DNA of 64,000 nt from Eledone cirrhosa. Its lineage: Eukaryota. Of this stretch, positions 47,113 through 62,779 are shown in pieces; position 1 is the first letter of the stretch; each line of letters starts with the position of its first letter. Made by a program: the position numbers and the translations under genes. Under the pieces are notes generated by a model that made no database searches, was not told where the DNA came from, and saw only the letters and a list, made by a program, of their open reading frames with translations. The stretch lies in the NCBI GenBank assembly GCA_964016885.1, contig OZ024740.1:309690001-309754000 (forward strand), given 5' to 3'.

Positions 47113-47374
47113 TTTCTTTTATTTGCCACTAGGGCATCAAAAGTGGGACAAGTACAAAGGGGGGAGTTTACACAAAAAGGCGTCCTCAATAAGGAGGAGG
47201 CAATAACAAAATATAAAAATAAAATAAGATATAACAAAAAATAAAATTTTTAACAAAATCCTCAATAGAGAGGAGGCGCCTTGGGGGGTCGCACACACCC
47301 CCGAAAAAAGTGTGCAACCCTTCTCCTCAGGAGCACAGAGAAGGGGTGCTCCCTTGGTCTTTCATCTTCCTCAC

Positions 47375-50300
47375 CTATAGTCTGATGTAGAGTGAAGGCC
47401 CATTCACACGGGCCATTCTCGCCACTTTCACCCATCTTTCATAGAAACGGCTGGGGTGCAGCACCTCTCTCTCCATCCTGATCCTTCTTCCGAAATGATA
47501 TCGGAAGAAACGGACCAGTTGTTGGCCAGAGAGAAAGGTGCCCGACCTCAGTCCTTTCAGACGCGTCCACCATACAACCTCTTTCGCCATGGCTATTACG
47601 CACAGAAACACCGCCTCTGCTTCATCTTTGAAGGGGGGAGGCGGCTTGATCATTACAATAGACTCGGTGGTCAACCGGATCGGTCCCACCCTTGACAGCA
47701 GTTGTTCGACATAGCCCCACAGATCGGCTACGCCCGAGCAGTGTACTAATGCGTGTGCAACGGTTTCCTCGTCGCACACGCATCTGGGACAGATCTTTTT
47801 GGCGGGGTCCCTACCCGGGCGCCCGTGTCTGTAGAGCCTTTCTCGAACGGGTAAAGCCCCTCGGTAGCACTGCCAGGCCAGGGACTTCTGGAAGTTGTCC
47901 ATAGGTCCCGGGCTGAATGTCCTACCGAACAGGCTGGCCAGTTCGTCCTCCTCCATGTCTAGGGCTTCTCCGAGGGCGTCGTCGCACCTGCTGCGTACCA
48001 GCCCTCTATAGAATGTTGCGGTGGAGTCTCCACTGATAACCGGGTCCGCCTGCCAGAGGGCGGTGAGCGCCTGGGCACACTCAGTGTGCCAGGCACCCAG
48101 TTTTCTCGGTCTTTGCTTGACCCAGGATTGCAGCTCGGTGAGTGAGACGAGTCTGGGAAAGGTTCGTCTCACAAACGAGGCCCACACCGGTTGTCCGGTG
48201 AGGAATACGTAGAGGTGCCGTAGCCTTAATGCGTGTTTACGCATCATTAGCCACGGCATCCCCAGCCCTCCTTTCGAAGGGTGTTGACAGCAGATGGATC
48301 TCCTCACCATAGGAGCCCGCCTCTTCCAAAGGAATTGGAAGAGCGCGCGCTCCATCTTGGTGAGGGTTTCCCTTGGGCAGGGCACTACGGTCAGGCGGTA
48401 GTAGATGACGGACGCTATGTAGGTGTTCGCCACCTCCGCCCGACCTTTCAGGGATAGTTTGCAACTGGCCCACTTCTGGGTCAGTGCAAACACCCTGTTC
48501 GTAACCTCCGCCCAGTTTTTCTCCACCTGGAGGTCCGGTCCGAACCAGACCCCGAGCAACTTCACCGGGCCCTCCGTCCAGCGTCCGACGACGCTATCGG
48601 AGGGCATCGGTCTGCCCCTCCACGTGCCGAGTTGCAAACCGATCGACTTGTCCCGGTTCAGCTTAGCCGCTGTGAACTTTTCGTACTCCTCCAGTAAGGT
48701 GCCGACCGCCTCGATTTCGGAGGCCGTCGACACCATTACTGTCACGTCATCGGCGTAGGCCGACACCGCTTTCCGCAATCCCGGTTCCAAGGGGATGCCC
48801 TGCAACAACTCCAACTTCCGCAGTAGTGGCTCGCGAGTCAACACATACAGAAGGGAGGAGAGAGGGCACCCTTGTCGGATGGACCGCGCGATTTTGAACG
48901 GCTCCGAAAGGTAGCCGTTCACCTTGACCCTAGAGCAGATGCGGCTGCTGTGCATAGCAGTGATCCAGCCCCTGAAAACGGGTCCGAAGCCTGCCGCCGC
49001 TAGCACCGCATCCAGGTAACCATGGTCGACCCTATCGAACGCCTTAGATTGATCCAAGTTGATCAGAGCCCCACCAAAGCCGGGTTCGTTCCCAACCCTC
49101 TCTATGATGTATCGCATGAGGTGGAGGTTGTCATGGATGGACCTGGACGGGATAGCGCATGTCTGCGCATCTCCCACCAGGTTGCCCACGACAAGCGCCA
49201 ACCTCTTTGCTAGCACCTTGGCCAAAATCTGTAACTCTGTATTTAGCAGTGTTATGGGCCTGAAGTTACTTATTTCGTCCCCCTTGTTCTCGTCCTTCCT
49301 CACTAGCGTGACTACGCCCTTGGTCACAGTACAGGGAATTCTCCCGTTCTGTTGCCAGTTGCAGTAGACCGCCTCGAGGAGATCGGGGAACAAGTCCGGC
49401 ATAGCTAGATATAATTCGTAAGGAAGACCATCGAGACCCGGGGATTTGCGTTTGCCGCATTGGCTCAGCACGTCCTCTATCTCAGCGGCCGAAATCGGCT
49501 CCTCGCAGGACTTCGCCTCCCTGTCCGAGAGGCGCGGCAGGCCGTCGAGGTATGGACCGAAGTCCACGTTCCCAACCGGCTCCCCGCCCCTCCCGAACAG
49601 TCGGGCAAAGTGCCTTTGAAAGGCCTCACACATCTGCTTAGGCTCAAGAATCGCCCGTCCATCCAGGTCTCGCAAAGACCGGATGGTGGATTTAGTTCCA
49701 CTGTTGGCCTCTGTCACGCGGGCCCAGCTGACAGCTTTGGTCCCCTCGTTCCCTAGAGCACGTATTTTACTTCGGACAACGCAGCCTTCGTGCTTCGCGT
49801 CGAAAAACTGGCTCAACGCCGTTCTCGATGCTAGCACTCTGGCCACGTCGCCGCTTCTAATTGCCTCTTCTACTCTATCTATTAGCTCCCTTTCCTTCCT
49901 ATTCCTATCCGCAGCTAGAACCTTACTAAATTCTATCGAGACTACTCTAATCTCTCTCTTTAGAGATACCCACCACCTGCTGTTGACGATCGCTCCAGTC
50001 AACCGTTCCTTAACTAACGTACTAATCCGATTCCTGTAGGCTCTACTTGCCGGCAAGGACAAGTTGAGCTTCCAGTAACCGGGGCCCTGTCTATGAGTTC
50101 TGTCAAGGTTGACCATGCAGGTCACTAATTTGTGGTCTGAATAGCCAACCATGCGCATTTTTGGACAACTTAAAAAGTCCTTATCCTTAATTCTAACTAA
50201 GAACCTATCTAGGTACGACCTAGATGATCCGCTACGATTTGCCCAAGTCCAGGTTGGCGCAGTCGGAAAATCTAGTCGATATCTATCGGCCAGGTCAAAT

Positions 50301-53344: not shown

Positions 53345-54455
53345 AATTCCATATATGGTCAAAGTGATTGTCAAAAATCAGTAGTAATTCTGTGGTTGCA
53401 AATTAGTAGGGGAGATGGTGGCTAAACCTGCCAGTAGGAGAAAGAGGGGAGGGGGTGGAGTAGACCCAATCAAGCGTTGGTAGTGCCAGCTACAGCTGGG
53501 CATGAGGTCAAAGAAGATACAGGGGAGGGGGAGGGGGAGGAAGTCGGAACGGTAGGTAGAACAATTGGGGGTAGAAATAGGAAAGAAAAAAAAAAAAAAA
53601 TACTGAGAGTGCAGAAAGGCAAATAAGTGTAAAGAAAAGTAAAGTAAATTAAATTCTACGACCTAGGTGTCAGGCTATTGTTAGGCGAGAATAAAATAAA
53701 GAAAGAAAGAAAGAAGTAAAAAAATAAATAAATGAATAAATAAGGAAATAAGTAAGAGAACTAGGTGGGACGGATAAGGCAAGGACCCTTTTAAGAGGTA
53801 TAAGTACGTAAATGATACGGTGACGGGTCAACAAAAGGGGCCAAAATACTAAAGAGACTACCACGAAATAAACAATAAAGGTTTCCATCCCGGGCCAGCA
53901 ACGACCCAGTGCAGCAAAGTGAACTTGTACGAGATAATAATTCTGAGTCCCGAGAAAAATATATACTAATGCTAACTCTAAAAGATCTAAAACAAGCTAC
54001 ATGAAAGTTCGTACGAAATAAAGGTAGAATACGGAGAAATAAATTCAGAATCCACCCCGCCCAGAAGAAGAGCGAAGCAAGAAATACTGAAACGAAAAAA
54101 TAAGGCATGTGCCACTAAGAAATATAGAGGGCACAGAGAATAGTGGGAGCGGTCGGAAAAAGGGGGAAAGTATCCGGGGTCTAAGCCAGCTGCTATAAAG
54201 GGCGGAGTCCGCCAAATCTATCAAAGACTAGGGGAGGGGGGTGGGGGTACTAAGGCTACATGGGGCCAAAGGGCAGCCTCGGGTGGGCGAGAAAAGACGC
54301 CGACAAAGGAGAAGAGCTGGGGTAGAAGGACAAAGGGGAGAGGGGGGAAGGAAATAAAGGAAGCGATAAAAGAATACAAAGAAGATCTTACGTCTTCCTT
54401 GGCAAGCAGGGGTTACCTATTGCAAAATCGGCAACTGGGGTGTTATAGCCCTAGT

Positions 54456-55886
54456 CTACCCCCCCGGGTCATTATGGGGTTTGAGGGCGAGGTAAGTCCT
54501 ACGCAATCTATGTTTACATGCAGTAACCAGTTCATCTTTCTTGTTTAGGAGTTGGTCCGTCGAAAACAGCATATGTAAAGTTTCCTCCGAGCATAAATTG
54601 CACGGACGGCGTCCTCCCGTGTAAGAATTGGCTCTGGACAGTAATCTCCAAGTGAGATCATAGGTGATGTTGTTGTCCTTGAGGTCCCATATGTGGCCCG
54701 AAAGTGTAGTGGCGTGACGCCGGGCCGGGTTTCGGAAGGTATGTCTATGTTGGTATAGCCGGGTCTTGAAGTCACATGCGGTAAGTCCTATATAGGCTTT
54801 GTTGGAGGTATCCGTCCTCACGTTGCACTGGTAGATCACATTACGGTCTCTGCATCTATTGTCGAGTGGGCAAATAGATCTATCCGGGCAGTTACACCTC
54901 CTGGTCGGTTCTCCACTGCTAATTAGGTTATTTCTGCCATCGGGGTTGAGTTTTTTGTTGTTAGAGGAGACGATGTTTTGTGCGAAGTTTGGTGTAGTGC
55001 TGTAAGAGAGTTTGATGGTATTTTTGTTAATTATGTTGTGGTAGCGGTGTTGTAATGGGAAGTGTTTTTCAATGAGCCTAAAGAATAGTTTCCCGATGGG
55101 AGTAGTCACCTCTGCGTTGTGGGGAGGATTGAACCATGTTACATTGCGTGAGCGGCGGTGTCTCCTGCTGGTTCCGCTAATGGGAGCTGGACAGTAGGAT
55201 ATTTCCTCCCGGAAACCACTCCGCTTGAGGGCCTGGTTGTAATAAGGCGCATGTTCATCGAATATCCGCTCATTAGCTGACAAACGGGATATGCGGAGGG
55301 AGATGTTTTTGACCAGGTTGTTTGTGATGTTCCTAGGATGGTTTGATCGGCGGTGGATGTAGTGCAGATTGTCATTAGGTTTCCTGTATGGGTAGTACAG
55401 GTCGTTTTCGAGGTCGAGGGTTACGTCCAGGAAGTTTACTCGGGTCAGGGACGTTTGTAGGGTTATTTTAAATCCCCAGTCGCGGAAGAATCTGATTAAT
55501 TGTTTCCGGACCCGATCTGTACTACTGGGGTTGTACCCTTTAAGGGTAAGGAGCCCATCATCACGGTACAATCCACCACCGAATGCAGGAAACATATCAG
55601 TGAGTTTGGCTATTAGGAATAATCCTATAAGATCAGTGACCTCCGCCGAATCCGTGGCGCCCATGCTGACGTCGAAGGGTGAGTCGGGAGCTCTTTTTAT
55701 CCATTTAGAGTCGTCAAAGAGTAAGACTGTCTTCCTGGCGTGGAGGATGATTTTTCTTTCCTGGTCGGTGATGGGCACGAGTGTTTCGGCGAAGTCCAAG
55801 GCGGCAGTAAGTAGCGGTAAGGTGATAGAAGCATAGTAGCTCTCTATGTCGAACTGTATGAATTTAGTTTCTCGTTTATCCTCCAT
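54456..55886 (-). CDS. PLE RT (C-terminal part) + CxC linker + GIY-YIG endonuclease, uninterrupted but N-terminally truncated
   Basis: QFDIESYY, MGATDSAEVTDLIG, GLYRDD, NFLDVTL, CNCPDRSICPLDNRC, VIYQ...AYIGLT...FKTR, CNLC and LLNKKDELVTACKHR. Confidence 0.9.
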   Translation of the reverse strand: MEDKRETKFIQFDIESYYASITLPLLTAALDFAETLVPITDQERKIILHARKTVLLFDDSKWIKRAPDSPFDVSMGATDSAEVTDLIGLFLIAKLTDMFPAFGGGLYRDDGLLTLKGYNPSSTDRVRKQLIRFFRDWGFKITLQTSLTRVNFLDVTLDLENDLYYPYRKPNDNLHYIHRRSNHPRNITNNLVKNISLRISRLSANERIFDEHAPYYNQALKRSGFREEISYCPAPISGTSRRHRRSRNVTWFNPPHNAEVTTPIGKLFFRLIEKHFPLQHRYHNIINKNTIKLSYSTTPNFAQNIVSSNNKKLNPDGRNNLISSGEPTRRCNCPDRSICPLDNRCRDRNVIYQCNVRTDTSNKAYIGLTACDFKTRLYQHRHTFRNPARRHATTLSGHIWDLKDNNITYDLTWRLLSRANSYTGGRRPCNLCSEETLHMLFSTDQLLNKKDELVTACKHRLRRTYLALKPHNDPGG

Positions 55887-56251
55887 TATATATATATCCT
55901 TCGTTTATCCTTCGTTATATATATATATATAGATATATAGATATATATATATATATATAGATATATATATAGAGATATATATATATAGATTTCTTTTATT
56001 TGCCACTAGGGCATCAAAAGTGGGACAAGTACAAAGGGGGGAGTTTACACAAAAAGGCGTCCTCAATAAGGAGGAGGCAATAACAAAATATAAAAATAAA
56101 ATAAGATATAACAAAAAATAAAATTTTTAACAAAATCCTCAATAGAGAGGAGGCGCCTTGGGGGGTCGCACACACCCCCGAAAAAAGTGTGCAACCCTTC
56201 TCCTCAGGAGCACAGAGAAGGGGTGCTCCCTTGGTCTTTCATCTTCCTCAC

Positions 56252-59200
56252 CTATAGTCTGATGTAGAGTGAAGGCCCATTCACACGGGCCATTCTCGCC
56301 ACTTTCACCCATCTTTCATAGAAACGGCTGGGGTGCAGCACCTCTCTCTCCATCCTGATCCTTCTTCCGAAATGATATCGGAAGAAACGGACCAGTTGTT
56401 GGCCAGAGAGAAAGGTGCCTGACCTCAGTCCTTTCAGACGCGTCCACCATACAACCTCTTTCGCCATGGCTATTACGCACAGAAACACCGCCTCTGCTTC
56501 ATCTTTGAAGGGGGGAGGCGGTTTGATCATTACAATAGACTCGGTGGTCAACCGGATCGGTCCCACCCTTGACAGCAGTTGTTCGACATAGCCCCACAGA
56601 TCGGCTACGCCCGAGCAGTGTACCAATGCGTGTGCAACGGTTTCCTCGTCGCACACGCATCTGGGACAGATCTTTTTGGCGGGGTCCCTACCCGGGCGCC
56701 CGTGTCTGTAGAGCCTTTCTCGAACGGGTAGAGCCCCTCGGTAGCACTGCCAGGCCAGGGACTTCTGGAAGTTGTCCATAGGTCCTGGGCTGAATGTCCT
56801 ACCGAACAGGCTGGCCAGTTCGTCCTCCTCCATGTCTAGGGCTTCTCCGAGGGCGTCGTCGCACCTGCTGCGTACCAGCCCTCTATAGAATGTTGCGGTG
56901 GAGTCTCCACTGATAACCGGATCCGCCTGCCAGAGGGCGGTGAGCGCCTGGGCACACTCAGTGTGCCAGGCGCCCAGTTTTCTCGGTCTTTGCTTGACCC
57001 AGGATTGCAGCTCGGTGAGTGAGACGAGTCTGGGAAAGGTTCGTCTCACAAACGAGGCCCACACCGGTTGTCCGGTGAGGAATACGTAGAGATGCCGTAG
57101 CCTTAATGCGTGTTTACGCATCATTAGCCACGGCATCCCCAGCCCTCCTTTCGAAGGGTGTTGACAGCAGATGGATCTCCTCACCATAGGAGCCCGCCTC
57201 TTCCAAAGGAATTGGAAGAGCGCGCGCTCCATCTTGGTGAGGGTTTCCCTTGGGCAGGGCACTACGGTCAGGCGGTAGTAGATGACGGACGCTATGTAGG
57301 TGTTCGCCACTTCCGCCCGACCTTTCAGGGATAGTTTGCAACTGGCCCACTTCTGGGTCAGTGCAAACACCCTGTTCGTAACCTCCGCCCAGTTTTTCTC
57401 CACCTGGAGGTCCGGTCCGAACCAGACCCCGAGCAACTTCACCGGGCCCTCCGTCCAGCGTCCGACGACGCTATCGGAGGGCATCGGTCTGCCCCTCCAC
57501 GTGCCGAGTTGCAAACCGATCGACTTGTCCCGGTTCAGCTTAGCCCCTGTGAACCTTTCGTACTCCTCCAGTAAGGTGCCGACCGCCTCGATTTCGGAGG
57601 CCGTCGACACCATTACTGTCACGTCATCGGCGTAGGCCGACACCGCTTTCCGCAATCCCGGTTCCAAGGGGATGCCCTGCAACAACTCCAACTTCCGCAG
57701 TAGTGGCTCGAGAGTCAACACATACAGAAGGGAGGAGAGAGGGCACCCTTGTCGGATGGACCGCGCGATTTGGAACGGCTCCGAGAGGTAGCCGTTCACC
57801 TTGACCCTAGAGCAGATGCGGCTGCTGTGCATAGCAGTGATCCAGCCCCTGAAAACGGGTCCGAAGCCTGCCGCCGCTAGCACCGCATCCAGGTAACCAT
57901 GGTCGACCCTATCGAACGCCTTAGATTGATCCAAGTTGATCAAAGCCCCACCAAAGCCGGGTTCGTTCCCAACCCTCTCTATGATGTATCGCATGAGGTG
58001 GAGGTTGTCATGGATGGACCTGGACGGGATAGCGCATGTCTGCGCATCTCCCACCAGGTTGCCCACGACAAGCGCCAACCTCTTTGCTAGCACCTTGGCC
58101 AAAATCTGTAACTCTGTATTTAGCAGTGTTATGGGCCTGAAGTTACTTATTTCGTCCCCCTTGTTCTCGTCCTTCCTCACTAGCGTGACTACGCCCTTGG
58201 TCACAGTACAGGGAATTCTCCCGTTCTGTTGCCAGTTGCAGTAGACCGCCTCGAGGAGATCGGGGAACAAGTCCGGCATAGCTAGATATAATTCGTAAGG
58301 AAGACCATCGAGACCCGGGGATTTGCGTTTGCCGCATTGGCTCAGCACGTCCTCTATCTCAGCGGCCGAAATCGGCTCCTCGCAGGACTTCGCCTCCCTG
58401 TCCGAGAGGCGCGGCAGGCCGTCGAGGTATGGACCGAAGTCCACGTTCCCAACCGGCTCCCCGCCCCTCCCGAACAGTCGGGCAAAGTGCCTTTGAAAGG
58501 CCTCACACATCTGCTTAGGCTCAAGAATCGCCCGTCCATCCAGGTCTCGCAAAGACCGGATGGTGGATTTAGTTCCACTGTTGGCCTCTGTCACGCGGGC
58601 CCAGCTGACAGCTTTGGTCCCCTCGTTCCCTAGAGCACGTATTTTACTTCGGACAACGCAGCCTTCGTGCTTCGCGTCGAAAAACTGGCTCAACGCCGTT
58701 CTCGATGCTAGCACTCTGGCCACGTCGCCGCTTCTAATTGCCTCTTCTACTCTATCTATTAGCTCCCTTTCCTTCCTATTCCTATCCGCAGCTAGAACCT
58801 TACTAAATTCTATCGAGACTACTCTAATCTCTCTCTTTAGAGATACCCACCACCTGCTGTTGACGATCGCTCCAGTCAACCGTTCCTTAACTAACGTACT
58901 AATCCGATTCCTGTAGGCTCTACTTGCCGGCAAGGACAAGTTGAGCTTCCAGTAACCGGGGCCCTGTCTATGAGTTCTGTCAAGGTTGACCATGCAGGTC
59001 ACTAATTTGTGGTCTGAATAGCCAACAATGCGCATTTTTGGACAACTTAAAAAGTCCTTATCCTTAATTCTAACTAAGAACCTATCTAGGTACGAACTAG
59101 ATGATCCGCTACGATTTGCCCAAGTCCAGGTTGGCGCAGTCGGAAAATCTAGTCGATATCTATCGGCCAGGTCAAATCGACCGATTAACCCTTTGAGGCT

Positions 59201-59689
59201 ATTACACCCCTCTCTATCGGGGCAGGCCCCTACGTAGTCCCAGCGTGCATCTAGGATACCATTCCAGTCCCCCACTAATAGCAAGGAGCGGGACGTCCCC
59301 AGAAAAGTCTCCAGACGATGGAAGAAGTCCGGCCGCATTGACCCGAAAGGGCCGTAGGCGGCTACCAACCTAAACGCTCCGCCTTTACCACTGCCAAGGT
59401 CCAGAACCACTAGTCGACCCTCCTGGTCCAAATGTACCATCTGTGTTGCGAGACCCAGATGTTTTTGCAGCAAAACGACAACTCCACCCCCACCTCCGGG
59501 CTGACAGAGAGATGCGTGCATCTCAAAGTCATCAAAGGTGGGGGCCAGCTGTCGCACGTTGCTGATCCGGGCCTCGCAAATAACCATCACATCTATACGT
59601 TGTGACCTGAGGTCATTTAGAAGCATTGCTTGCTTCCAAGTTGAGCCCAGGCCACGCGCATTTAAACAGCCTACTCTTAGCATAGCCAT
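56252..59689 (-). CDS. Tx1/L1-like ORF2: APE + RT + zinc-binding domain (ATG at 59689)
   Basis: Same motifs as copy 1. The ATG is in aacATGg context; the track's GTG start at 59713 directly follows the ORF1 stop. Confidence 0.95.
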   Translation of the reverse strand: MAMLRVGCLNARGLGSTWKQAMLLNDLRSQRIDVMVICEARISNVRQLAPTFDDFEMHASLCQPGGGGGVVVLLQKHLGLATQMVHLDQEGRLVVLDLGSGKGGAFRLVAAYGPFGSMRPDFFHRLETFLGTSRSLLLVGDWNGILDARWDYVGACPDREGCNSLKGLIGRFDLADRYRLDFPTAPTWTWANRSGSSSSYLDRFLVRIKDKDFLSCPKMRIVGYSDHKLVTCMVNLDRTHRQGPGYWKLNLSLPASRAYRNRISTLVKERLTGAIVNSRWWVSLKREIRVVSIEFSKVLAADRNRKERELIDRVEEAIRSGDVARVLASRTALSQFFDAKHEGCVVRSKIRALGNEGTKAVSWARVTEANSGTKSTIRSLRDLDGRAILEPKQMCEAFQRHFARLFGRGGEPVGNVDFGPYLDGLPRLSDREAKSCEEPISAAEIEDVLSQCGKRKSPGLDGLPYELYLAMPDLFPDLLEAVYCNWQQNGRIPCTVTKGVVTLVRKDENKGDEISNFRPITLLNTELQILAKVLAKRLALVVGNLVGDAQTCAIPSRSIHDNLHLMRYIIERVGNEPGFGGALINLDQSKAFDRVDHGYLDAVLAAAGFGPVFRGWITAMHSSRICSRVKVNGYLSEPFQIARSIRQGCPLSSLLYVLTLEPLLRKLELLQGIPLEPGLRKAVSAYADDVTVMVSTASEIEAVGTLLEEYERFTGAKLNRDKSIGLQLGTWRGRPMPSDSVVGRWTEGPVKLLGVWFGPDLQVEKNWAEVTNRVFALTQKWASCKLSLKGRAEVANTYIASVIYYRLTVVPCPRETLTKMERALFQFLWKRRAPMVRRSICCQHPSKGGLGMPWLMMRKHALRLRHLYVFLTGQPVWASFVRRTFPRLVSLTELQSWVKQRPRKLGAWHTECAQALTALWQADPVISGDSTATFYRGLVRSRCDDALGEALDMEEDELASLFGRTFSPGPMDNFQKSLAWQCYRGALPVRERLYRHGRPGRDPAKKICPRCVCDEETVAHALVHCSGVADLWGYVEQLLSRVGPIRLTTESIVMIKPPPPFKDEAEAVFLCVIAMAKEVVWWTRLKGLRSGTFLSGQQLVRFFRYHFGRRIRMEREVLHPSRFYERWVKVARMARVNGPSLYIRL

Positions 59690-59713
59690 GTTGGTGGTGA
59701 AGAGAAAAGGCAC

Positions 59714-61498
59714 TTACCTCTCTGCGTCCCGAGTATCGGGCTGCACAATTTCCATTAGGGTGGGGGATGGGTTGTTGGGTGGGGTGGTGGTTTGTGGAAG
59801 TGTGGGGGCATCAGTGTGTTGTGTGGTTGGGGAGCTTGGAGTTGTGAGGGTGTTTGGGGAGGGGGTGGGATAGTTTTTTAGGAGGACGCGGTTAATGGGC
59901 CCGACGCAGGGGGGACCCACGTCCTCTTTAAAATTGTTTTTTAAAGTTTTATAGGTGTCCTGTGGGGCCTTAATCATTTTGAGGTGGGGGAAATCCCCTG
60001 CCTGGGTGAAGTTAGGCCCTTGTGTTTTTATTAGATTGTTGTTGTACACAATGTTTAACAGTTTTTTGTTTCTTGTATTTATGTATGTGTATGCATGTTT
60101 TTGTTTTTGTGTGGTGTTTTTTGTTTGCTGTTTTGAGCTCTTTTGTGTTGGTGTCAGTGTTATGTTTTGGGGAGGGTTTTTTTTCATTTGTGTGTCTGAG
60201 GTGTGTTTTCTTTTTTTTCTTTTGATTGTGTGGAAGTGCTCCTCCTCGTCTGACGACGAACTAGGGTCATCTTCCGCGTTGGAGGGGTGGGGTATATTTT
60301 CGGGTTGTGTTTGCGGTACGGGTGTTTTGGAAATTGTTTTTGTTTTTTGGGTGGAGGGGATGGGTTGGACATTGTTTTGTTTTGGTTTGAGCTGTGGTGG
60401 TTGTTTTTGTAGTGGTAGTTGTGGTGATTGTGTTGGTTGTGCAGTTGTTGGTGGTGTAGGCAGGATTGGGGTTTTCTTATTAAGTTGGGGACAGACAGCC
60501 CTCAGGTGACCTCTGGTTCCGCAGAGGTAACACGAGGGCCGTCTACCCTCAACGGTAATGTTGATGAAGGTTAGATCATCCAGTATGACGCGTTCAGGGA
60601 TCTGGGCGATCCTTTCGGGCCTCATTTGAACTACAAGTTCGAGGCTCGTTCCACTGAACGCGTCACCCGATGCCTTTCCCATGGACACCAGCATGTCATC
60701 CTCCAGGTCCAGAAAACCTGTCAAAACCCACCATATGTCCATAATCGGCAGGATGGTGTGGATTTTTATTTTTTGTGTTCTTCTACCCATGTACGTAGGG
60801 TAGAAGGTGTATGCGGTGGATGTGATTGGTTTGATGGACAGTTTCACTGCTGTGTCCCTGTCCTTCATGAGAATGGATAGACTCCCGTAGAGTCTATCCT
60901 TCTGAATGAAGGTGATGTCCTTCATGACGTCTTTTAAAACCAGCTCTATCTCGCTCTGTGATGGTTGAGCTGGTTTTTTACTTTTGTTCGAGATTGTCCT
61001 AAACATGACCGTGTTTAGGAGTCTCTGGCTTTTTAGTTCCGGGGGGGAATGGATTGTGAATGAACCATTTTCCCCGTACACTATATATTTTTTCGCATCC
61101 GCCAGTAGCTCCTTCGCTTTTGTTATATCTACTGGCAGATAGTCGAGGGTTTTCCTTGTCGTCTCGGCGAAGGAGAAATTTTGTTTGTTTGTGTTGTTGT
61201 TGTCGTTGGTGGTGTTGTTGTTATCATTGTTGTTGTTGTCACCGTTATTGGTCTTGTTGTTGTTATTGTTATTGTTATTGGTGTTGCTTTCGTCCGTCGC
61301 ATTGTTGTTGTTGCTGTTGCTGCTGGTTCGTTGGGTTGTTGCCATGGCAACGTCAAGTTGTCGGTTAACAGGTGGAGAGAATTCTTCCTCTGGCTGACCT
61401 ATCTTCTTGACCTCTGCTACTGTGACAGTGGCAGGGGGAAGCTGTAAGTTCATCTTCCCCTTTCCTCCTTCGAATTTTGGTGAAGAAGCTTCGGCCAT
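59714..61498 (-). CDS. Tx1-like ORF1 nucleic-acid chaperone (Asn-rich N-terminus, CCHC knuckle, Pro/Thr/Lys-rich tail), 594 aa
   Basis: CYLCGTRGHLRAVC fits CX2CX4HX4C; located upstream of ORF2. Confidence 0.9.
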   Translation of the reverse strand: MAEASSPKFEGGKGKMNLQLPPATVTVAEVKKIGQPEEEFSPPVNRQLDVAMATTQRTSSNSNNNNATDESNTNNNNNNNNKTNNGDNNNNDNNNTTNDNNNTNKQNFSFAETTRKTLDYLPVDITKAKELLADAKKYIVYGENGSFTIHSPPELKSQRLLNTVMFRTISNKSKKPAQPSQSEIELVLKDVMKDITFIQKDRLYGSLSILMKDRDTAVKLSIKPITSTAYTFYPTYMGRRTQKIKIHTILPIMDIWWVLTGFLDLEDDMLVSMGKASGDAFSGTSLELVVQMRPERIAQIPERVILDDLTFINITVEGRRPSCYLCGTRGHLRAVCPQLNKKTPILPTPPTTAQPTQSPQLPLQKQPPQLKPKQNNVQPIPSTQKTKTISKTPVPQTQPENIPHPSNAEDDPSSSSDEEEHFHTIKRKKRKHTSDTQMKKNPPQNITLTPTQKSSKQQTKNTTQKQKHAYTYINTRNKKLLNIVYNNNLIKTQGPNFTQAGDFPHLKMIKAPQDTYKTLKNNFKEDVGPPCVGPINRVLLKNYPTPSPNTLTTPSSPTTQHTDAPTLPQTTTPPNNPSPTLMEIVQPDTRDAER

Positions 61499-61716
61499 TT
61501 AAAAAAATATTGACTTTTCAACAAGAAAAAAACTTTTTTTTTAACTATTTCGCCTAAAGGCGTAGAATATTTTGAGAGACTGACCAGATCAAAGTTTGAC
61601 CTGGCAGTCCCTCTACAAAATGGTACAAAAATTAAAGTTATCAGACAAGAATTTCTATAGAAATTTAAACAGAACTTACTCAGCAAGTTATACGCGTGTG
61701 TCCATCCCAGAGATAG

Positions 61717-61759
<43 letters not shown>

Positions 61760-61775
61760 TATATATAGATATATA

Positions 61776-61806
<31 letters not shown>

Positions 61807-62779
61807 ATATATATATAGATAGATATATATAGATATAGATATATATAGATATAGATATATATATAGAGAGAGGAATGTTTCGAAAAGATAGATTATTTAG
61901 AATTCTTTTCAATTGTTTCAGTGCATAAATCTTTTGCATATTTCCGTATTTTGGAATCTTCTTTAGAAATTCTCTTCCTTTTAATATATTTAATATAGAT
62001 TTTGGAGTTGTGTCCTCGATTGTAATTACAGATATTACAGATATGCCTTATTGTAAACTTTTCCTAGAGTAAAACATATTCTTAGATTTCAATCGTATTA
62101 TCCGCTCCTTAACATTTCAATCTTTATATTGTTCCATTCTAGTTGCAAGTTTGAGATTTAAATTAACGAACATACGGTCTAGGATAACACGACCTACCAG
62201 TATACTGGTATGGCGTCATTCCTATAATAACCGGATCATACAGGAATTCTTTTCTCATAGCCTGTGCAATGAATACTCTTTTCGTTGTTCGCACTGTTGT
62301 GCAATACTTCAATTATTTTTATTGCTTTTTCCAGCAGTTCCTTCATATTTTGATCTGCCTTGCTTTTATTTTTGGCATTGATTTGCAAACAGGCTCATAA
62401 TACCGCTTTATTTTGACGTGTTGCTTACAAGCCTCTCCGTCGTATGAAGTTCATTCATTTATGTGTTCATACATATATATTAATTATGATTCTGTTATTG
62501 AAATCAACTCCTGGGTGTGTATAGGTTTCATACCACAGTGATGTCATGCCAGTATTTATTAGGTTTAAAAGTTTCGCGAATGACCAGAAGTGATAGATTG
62601 TTTTCGTGGTTTACTTCGCCTAGCCACAAGATGTGATTTCAGGATGAGAGGTTGGCTCATATATTAACAGAATGTAGCCAAACGCTATTGCCTGTGCAGT
62701 CCACATATTCTGGAGCGAGACTTTCTCCTAAAGGTCCTGTATGTTCTCGTGGGGTTACTATGTGTTACTATTGGAATGC

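Follow-up and report, generated by a model that had tools for sequence, protein, structure and literature searches.

A young L1-group family of long interspersed elements with a strand-specific preference for (TATC)n repeats in Eledone cirrhosa

Several retrotransposons of the apurinic/apyrimidinic endonuclease (APE) type insert into defined microsatellites. According to the passages of the cited papers used here and below, Kibi is found on (TC)n, Koshi on (TTC)n and crocodilian Tx1 families on (TTCC)n or (TTTC)n (PMC4494074, PMC3812793), all being long interspersed elements (LINEs) of the L1 group, and a family counts as target-specific when the same flank type is found in more than 20% of its copies, 5'-truncated ones included (PMC4494074). 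Further site-specific LINEs belong to the R1 clade, among them Waldo on (ACAY)n, Mino on (AC)n, SART1/TRAS1 and R1Bm (PMC3812793, PMC7265360, PMC6007223). Pairing between RNA and target has been proposed as a priming aid for R1Bm, the I factor and R2Ol (PMC6007223) and for internal starts of SART1 (PMC7265360). Here, we analyzed a window of 64,000 nucleotides from Eledone cirrhosa (assembly GCA_964016885.1, contig OZ024740.1, positions 309,690,001 to 309,754,000 of the forward strand) carrying two full-length copies of a LINE without a poly(A) tail, for which a sequence-only reading had proposed a TA/TAGA-specific family. We conclude, with a probability of roughly 70%, that these copies inserted independently of each other and belong to a young family of L1-group LINEs which integrates strand-specifically in (TATC)n and is primed by nicking and pairing. 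Like the crocodilian Tx1 families, Kibi and Koshi, it is an APE-type L1-group LINE inserting in a specific microsatellite; with the R1-clade elements it shares microsatellite targeting by an APE element, in a different clade.

Target preference was determined using the first 100 family 3' ends listed on C1, one of the assembled sequences of this genome. Dropping one duplicate junction (L086) left 99 copies. As background, 30 evenly spaced 10-kb stretches of C1 (300 kb) were scored in 24-base windows, of which 0.19% were TATC, 0.21% GATA and 7.1% TA repeat. The 3' flanks were TATC in 70 of the 99 copies, TA in 15, other sequence in 14 and GATA in none. Such a tabulation had been suggested by the sequence-only reading with background (TA)n in mind, and what it shows is enrichment of TATC. 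At the 5' junctions of the 77 truncated copies we found TATC in 48, TA in 10, other sequence in 19 and again no GATA, while 18 of the 22 full-length copies had TATC. Shared flanks of this type are thus widely above the 20% level at both 3' ends and truncated 5' junctions.

The same picture was obtained for the whole genome, where 1,284 ends of the family run NN-TATCTATC and 157 run NN-TATATATA, with no case of the reverse repeat GATAGATA within 0-8 bases of a 3' end. Background 8-mers showed 10,522 occurrences of TATATATA compared with 52 of TATCTATC, making TA sites about 200 times commoner, and the preference for TATC over TA per available site was 1,655-fold (bootstrap 1,016-2,929). No (ATT)n was seen at the 3' ends of the 99 copies even though ATTATTAT outnumbers TATCTATC threefold. 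The target is therefore (TATC)n on the sense strand of the element, in a strand-specific manner, and (TA)n, having the same first three bases as TATC, is a minor overflow target. Microsatellite targeting as proposed by the sequence-only reading holds, whereas TA as the main target is rejected by the per-site preference; TA at truncated 5' junctions (10/77) has to be seen against 7.1% in the background. Both window copies are among the 157 TA-type ends and represent an atypical minority. Since TA repeats make up 7.1% of background windows, two copies lying in TA arrays mean little by themselves, and the signal above chance comes from the genome-wide sample rather than from the window pair.

A Penelope-like family in the same genome serves as a control. 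Its end motif has 10,739 genome matches, and among the first 30 of these, 17 open into pure (TA)n, 13 run on into the element and none opens into TATC, so that its outer ends are (TA)n in 17/17 cases. One family chooses TA and the other TATC within the same genome. The TA-specific element at the window locus is the Penelope-like one, not the LINE.

Repeats next to a retrotransposon could also be tails made by the element itself, or copies might merely persist in repeat-rich regions in the absence of any targeting. This would fit 12 of the 99 copies, which combine a TATC or TA 3' flank with a non-repeat 5' junction, and also the rarity of TATC arrays in the background and their frequent position between related elements. 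In contrast, TATC is found at 48 of the 77 truncated 5' junctions, and because the break positions are scattered, the repeat at these junctions represents target DNA and not a tail. The orientation bias of 1,284 to 0, the target-site duplications (TSDs), which mark the 3' flank as target DNA, and the Penelope-like outer ends, which are TA in 17/17 and never TATC, also speak against this explanation. We consider it very improbable overall, and its tail version is rejected as largely refuted by truncated-copy junctions, orientation and TSDs.

The junctions are precisely built. TAT lies exactly two bases past AAAGAAA in 97 of the 99 C1 copies, hence insertion into (TC)n or (TTC)n of the Kibi or Koshi type was not what these junctions show. 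TSDs were readable at 13 sites, with lengths of 12-22 bp (7-22 bp when 0-5 bases of 5' microhomology are subtracted), and all of them start at that TAT. The dinucleotide between AAAGAAA and TAT was TA in 39, CA in 31, CT in 25 and another sequence in 4 copies. In the 81 rows where 620 or more bases could be aligned, TA was present in 29/31 copies carrying one haplotype compared with 3/29 copies carrying the alternative one (p=2.5e-11). CT was present in 16/21 copies of a diverged subfamily as opposed to 6/60 (p=2.8e-8). As the dinucleotide follows the internal haplotype, it is likely copied from RNA that extends past AAAGAAA. At TA-type sites, two TATC units at the 5' junction were seen in 4/4 full-length but 2/15 truncated copies (p=0.004), and copy 1 of the window, which is outside this count, carries the same two units. 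These 5' units suggest a transcript start within the upstream repeat. Poly(A) after the family 3' end was found at 3 loci genome-wide compared with about 1,985 ends. In all three, the A-run begins after AAAGAAA-C(A) or -CAT(A), and the copies sit in (TAA)n or unique AT-rich DNA with a TATC array on neither side. Unique flanks and poly(A) tails in most copies, named by the sequence-only reading as a pattern that would speak against targeting, are not what the genome holds, given these 3 loci and non-repeat 3' flanks in 14/99 copies.

Based on these junctions, we propose the following course of insertion. A first nick in the GATA strand, probably made by the APE endonuclease, would fall at 5'-GATA^GATA-3' or no more than two bases away, a position suggested by TSDs starting at the TAT two bases past AAAGAAA. 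The new APE specificity put forward by the sequence-only reading is likewise a prediction. The RNA would begin in the upstream repeat, traverse the element and carry a few UAUC units past AAUAAA. The freed DNA end could then pair with UAUC, and sometimes also with the two preceding bases, allowing reverse transcription to start there, and second-strand cleavage 12-22 bp downstream would yield the TSD. Priming on UAUC repeats past AAUAAA would skip the poly(A) and may thus explain why it is missing. As TATC remains on either side of an insertion, copies stack head to tail. SART1 requires a long poly(A) for accurate starts (PMC7265360), whereas the present family almost never copies poly(A).

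In an alternative scheme, the target would be determined solely by the endonuclease, the RNA would be cut just past AAAGAAA-NN and be copied from an end almost or entirely free of poly(A), and read-through pairing would make no real contribution. Extra TATC units would not be expected in this case, and no added repeat units were seen at non-array sites (e.g. L014, L070, L077, L085 and L133). Further, the poly(A) copies show that cleavage right past the dinucleotide is possible, TA-site copies are spread across all haplotypes, and one endonuclease residue follows the target in sister families, as described below. Set against this, the poly(A) copies are off target in 3/3 cases, full-length copies have 5' TATC units even at TA sites, and the last dinucleotide base matches the target at 6/6 informative sites lacking a preceding TC, which are weak sites. 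Taken together, we regard the scheme as unlikely and favor nicking followed by pairing, with an endonuclease preference for the TATC repeat and pairing of the RNA with it as the likely causes of targeting.

Closely related families use a different repeat. The end motif TGTGGYNAATAAAGAAA has 31,123 genome matches, 10,854 of which run NN-ATTATTATT, i.e. into (ATT)n, and the 3' end GTGGYNAATAAAGAAA-NN is common to TATC and ATT families. The first 30 loci with the end motif comprised 12 ATT, 11 TATC and 7 other ends, several of the latter being short ATT or TATC forms. Sister families on (ATT)n are a further difference from Kibi and Koshi. Reverse transcriptase (RT) identity between TATC and ATT families is 71-77%. 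An RT tree of 37 rows was calculated after dropping near-duplicates and copies more than 96% identical to the query; besides relatives without a name, it included a pol-like protein from an ascidian and four LINE proteins from plants. Six TATC rows formed a clade (100/99) nested among six ATT rows, and the sister of this clade was a single ATT row (98/98). This hints at a switch from ATT to TATC, an assignment that depends on that one sister row. No open reading frame 2 (ORF2) of at least 1,000 aa was obtained among the fetched ATT sisters under a filter demanding SDH; ATT copies have TDH. ATT-targeting sister LINEs (L272-L291; L162) were also seen in head-to-tail stacks about 6 kb apart, and two ATT ends were present in one of the background stretches.

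Shared 3' ends raise the question of RNA guidance. In its general form, the transcript would begin in the repeat flanking the parent copy and run on into it, its pairing with nicked DNA would select the site, and the target could be reprogrammed by the RNA end; we hold this to be decidedly unlikely. In a second version, which appears highly doubtful to us, guidance would come mainly from RNA pairing. Simple repeats would be nicked by an endonuclease of low specificity, extension would be confined to nicks pairing with the read-through repeat, and each copy would thereby pass on the target of its parent's flank. Both the common 3' end and the nearly identical endonuclease hairpins of TATC and ATT families (TNRIGSSRSYLD vs ANRSGSSRSYLD) would be explained by it, as would the single TATC clade nested among ATT families and an enrichment that climbs with match length up to 16 bases. 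Yet TA-site copies are few and found over all haplotypes, and no TA lineage was founded despite TA being 200 times commoner. Moreover, ATT and TATC families share no more than about 46-64% identity in the second half of the endonuclease, which means that the protein differs on other surfaces. Within the hairpin, 14/15 ATT-linked sister sequences have I as the tip residue and 17/18 TATC-linked ones have S, while all 33 carry R or K at position 198.

Several observations weigh against the interpretation of targeted insertion with nicking and pairing. All 99 sampled sites lie within the initial 156 Mb of C1, corresponding to one chromosome arm, they are not fully independent because stacked copies have flanks in common, and the preference ratio depends on just 52 background TATCTATC 8-mers. 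Non-repeat sequence was found at 19/77 truncated 5' junctions and in 14/99 3' flanks, an array was absent on both sides at 11/99 sites under the scoring rule used, and at most of the 17 non-repeat sites examined no TSD could be found. The poly(A) argument relies on a small number of copies (n=3), and the microhomology argument on n=6 in an A-rich context including one self-insertion. Only one consistent hairpin residue separates the TATC family from its ATT sisters. In case of the window copies, neither shows a readable TSD, and they have 4 derived sites in common.

Some insertions outside TATC arrays are worth recording. L085, L086 and L087 (C1:108.72-108.83 Mb) lie in a 48-bp satellite at a CTATAT step; the junctions of L085 and L086 are identical and were therefore copied along with the satellite. 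Copies L032, L136, L144 and L070 adjoin (TACC)n arrays, and their junctions contain just one TATC unit.

The encoded proteins assign the family to the L1 group of APE-type non-long-terminal-repeat retrotransposons. ORF2 combines APE, RT and CCHC regions and is nearest to L1, there are two ORFs, copies are frequently 5'-truncated and TSDs are present; the 3' poly(A) tail of canonical L1 elements is lacking. Family ORF2s have E, D-x-N, D and SDH motifs. A profile built from 29 relatives gave human LINE-1 ORF2p as its top match (E=7e-207), with R2 at E=4e-67, and an AlphaFold model of ORF2 (predicted local distance difference test, pLDDT, of 84.6) had its best fold matches with L1 ORF2p and L1 endonuclease structures. 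Human LINE-1 ORF2p and endonuclease (PDB 8uw3, 9k6i, 1vyb) are thus the best match in both sequence and fold. A phmmer search of the PDB with a single endonuclease sequence missed L1 even though the profile found it. The hairpin corresponding to L1 betaB6-betaB5 was mapped by eye from the profile alignment, and in both proteins nine residues lie between the hairpin anchors. Its tip S194 (L1 P197) is I in the ATT-targeting sisters. In L1, the endonuclease hairpin probes the minor groove (PMC1950540). TSD lengths are likewise similar, but the poly(A) tail copied by L1 and its loose preference of the TTAAAA type contrast with the missing tail and strong repeat preference of the present family, and a CCHC knuckle in the ORF1 of this family is another difference from L1.

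The Tx1 label used by the sequence-only reading is a plausible candidate assignment. ORF1 proteins of the Tx1 clade carry a gag-like CCHC knuckle, and plant LINEs also have CCHC knuckles in ORF1. Homologue searches with the family proteins returned no named Tx1 protein (Tx1L, Keno, Kibi, Koshi or Mutsu) among their matches, and a search with ORF1 residues 105-345 found nothing. Outside the genome's own families, the next relatives after P0001 (P0002-P0018) are about 40% identical over ORF2, some of them occurring in clusters of hundreds of members. Parts of the element also occurred in sequencing runs of two further organisms, at a depth too low to count as evidence of distribution.

As the sequence-only reading had supposed, the family is young. 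Across the 3.0-Gb genome, 1,985 3' ends were counted by exact matches of a nearby 18-mer and 367 5' ends by exact pattern. The mean pairwise difference was 0.6% over the 3' 3.8 kb of 26 full-length main-subfamily copies; nine of 35 full-length copies had been excluded from this sample, namely six belonging to a subfamily with 87% identity, two of higher divergence and one with an insertion. Both ORFs are open in 14/35 full-length copies (13/33 excluding the window copies) and in 5/16 copies on C2, taken as the first 16 plus-strand 5'-end matches listed, which scales to roughly a hundred two-ORF-open copies. Truncation at the 5' end affects 77/99 C1 copies. The 87%-identical subfamily (L061, L065, L069, L092, L104 and L126) has the same last 3' bases as the main family, with both ORFs open in 4/6 copies. 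Copies L041, L043 and L199 are internally mosaic, suggesting recombination or template switching.

Both window copies lie on the minus strand in the same orientation, and their alignment of 5,678 matching columns with 35 substitutions and 8 internal indels (99.4% identity) confirms the two full-length, nearly identical copies reported by the sequence-only reading (Table 1). Its description of four junctions opening into TA/TAGA repeat and of an AATAAA signal lacking an A-tail agrees with the end sequences as well. The 3' ends read GCCCTAGTGGCAAATAAAAGAAA, followed by TATATA in copy 1 and TCTATA in copy 2; the terminus common to both is AATAAAAGAAA plus two bases plus repeat, and the 5' ends of both read TATC-TCTGGGATGG.

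Could the pair have arisen by local duplication or mis-assembly? Same orientation, a distance of 3.1 kb, the 4 shared derived sites and a nearby assembly gap (41940-42139) would be compatible with this, though same orientation is expected anyway because the arrays are oriented. However, 23 of 3,799 sites distinguish the copies, which is the median level of the family (0.6%), and their end dinucleotides and flanks differ. Both also have closer relatives at other loci: 14 of 24 copies outside the window are closer to copy 1 than copy 2 is, and the nearest relative of copy 2 is a copy on C2. This leaves a negligible chance for mis-assembly or local duplication, including the segmental duplication that the sequence-only reading had considered, and copies 1 and 2 are independent insertions. 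The shared derived sites indicate that they are related or partly converted.

The suggestion that copy 2 may be active is weakened by its private endonuclease changes P89Q and R198S, each present in 0/19 other ORF2s, and by the finding that 13/33 other copies have both ORFs open as well. Position 198 is R in 19/19 other 1,145-aa ORF2s outside the window, and since R or K is kept there across both target groups, copy 2 is a poor candidate for an active source; a role as special master copy was rejected. Copy 1 has private RT changes (L660R, G715A) and is likely not self-mobile given its broken ORF1. For copy 2, the zf-RVT match in ORF2 is below the curated Pfam cut-off, as is the match of the ORF1 knuckle to Pfam zf-CCHC (E=0.051).

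Table 1. Features of the analyzed window, in window coordinates.
Feature	Position	Strand	Description
Array	42509..47112	.	TA with interspersed TAGA on +, read as TATC on the element strand; flanks copy 1 at its 3' end
LINE copy 1	47113..52850	-	full length, 5,738 bp; ORF1 broken
AATAAA, copy 1	47118..47123	-	5 bases ahead of AAAGAAA end; TA and repeat next
ORF2, copy 1	47375..50812	-	1,145 aa: APE endonuclease, RT, C-terminal CCHC
ORF1, copy 1	50837..52630	-	stop after 272 aa, frameshifts further downstream
Array	52851..53238	.	TA/TAGA; flanks copy 1 at its 5' end and the Penelope-like element at its 3' end
Penelope-like element (putative)	53239..55915	-	5'-truncated, 2.7 kb; 476-aa ORF at 54456-55886
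Array	55916..55989	.	TA/TAGA; 3' flank of copy 2
LINE copy 2	55990..61711	-	full length, 5,722 bp; both ORFs open
AATAAA, copy 2	55995..56000	-	AGAAA, TC, repeat next
ORF2, copy 2	56252..59689	-	1,145 aa: Exo_endo_phos 23-227, RVT_1 512-755, zf-RVT 976-1032
Hairpin codons T189-S199, copy 2	59093..59125	-	counterpart of L1 betaB6-betaB5 hairpin (L1 T192-S202)
ORF1, copy 2	59714..61498	-	594 aa, one CX2CX4HX4C knuckle
Array	61712..61865	.	TA/TAGA; 5' flank of copy 2, then unique sequence

In the order of the table, the four flanking arrays, which consist mostly of TA, contain 247, 30, 5 and 12 TAGA units on the + strand and 3, 0, 0 and 0 TCTA units, and with TAGA present and almost no TCTA on this strand they are TATC-bearing on the element strand. 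The array at 36242-47113 shifts from a TACA type (346 TACA, 9 TAGA) to a TAGA type (247 TAGA, 27 TACA); this shift spans the assembly gap and a short unique island, and the LINE is located at the TAGA end. The element between the two copies appears to be Penelope-like based on its motifs, its ORF having RT-like YRDDG and GIY-YIG-like motifs; Pfam and PDB searches with this ORF gave no match. Many copies of the Penelope-like family carry a short inverted duplicate of the end, and many of the 13 matches that run on into the element are inner arms of an inverted pair (L212-L241). Inverted ends and a (TA)n bias have been described for Penelope-like elements (PMC8557442).

While microsatellite-seeking LINEs are known, the (TATC)n target is apparently unreported within the literature searched. 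It is absent from the targets named in the passages of PMC4494074 and PMC3812793 used here, and our literature searches returned no paper on a GATA- or TATC-targeting LINE; Repbase, Dfam or Figure 3 and the supplement of PMC4494074 may list this target. A 2026 annotation of Octopus vulgaris describes 13 recently active L1-Tx1 families with 421 insertions, and a term search of its main text did not return the words 'target' or 'GATA' (PMC13282606).

In conclusion, (TATC)n/(GATA)n is added to the targets of L1-group LINEs, within the literature searched. The TATC and ATT families constitute a natural matched pair with the same 3' end and a hairpin differing at one tip residue, and tens of thousands of insertions together with intact young TATC copies are available for comparison. 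This makes the respective shares of endonuclease and RNA-DNA pairing in the target choice of APE-type LINEs directly testable. If targeting were largely RNA-guided, the endonuclease could have passed from (ATT)n to (TATC)n almost or entirely unchanged (one consistent tip residue, I to S). The finding further helps to explain long oriented stacks of LINEs inside microsatellites.

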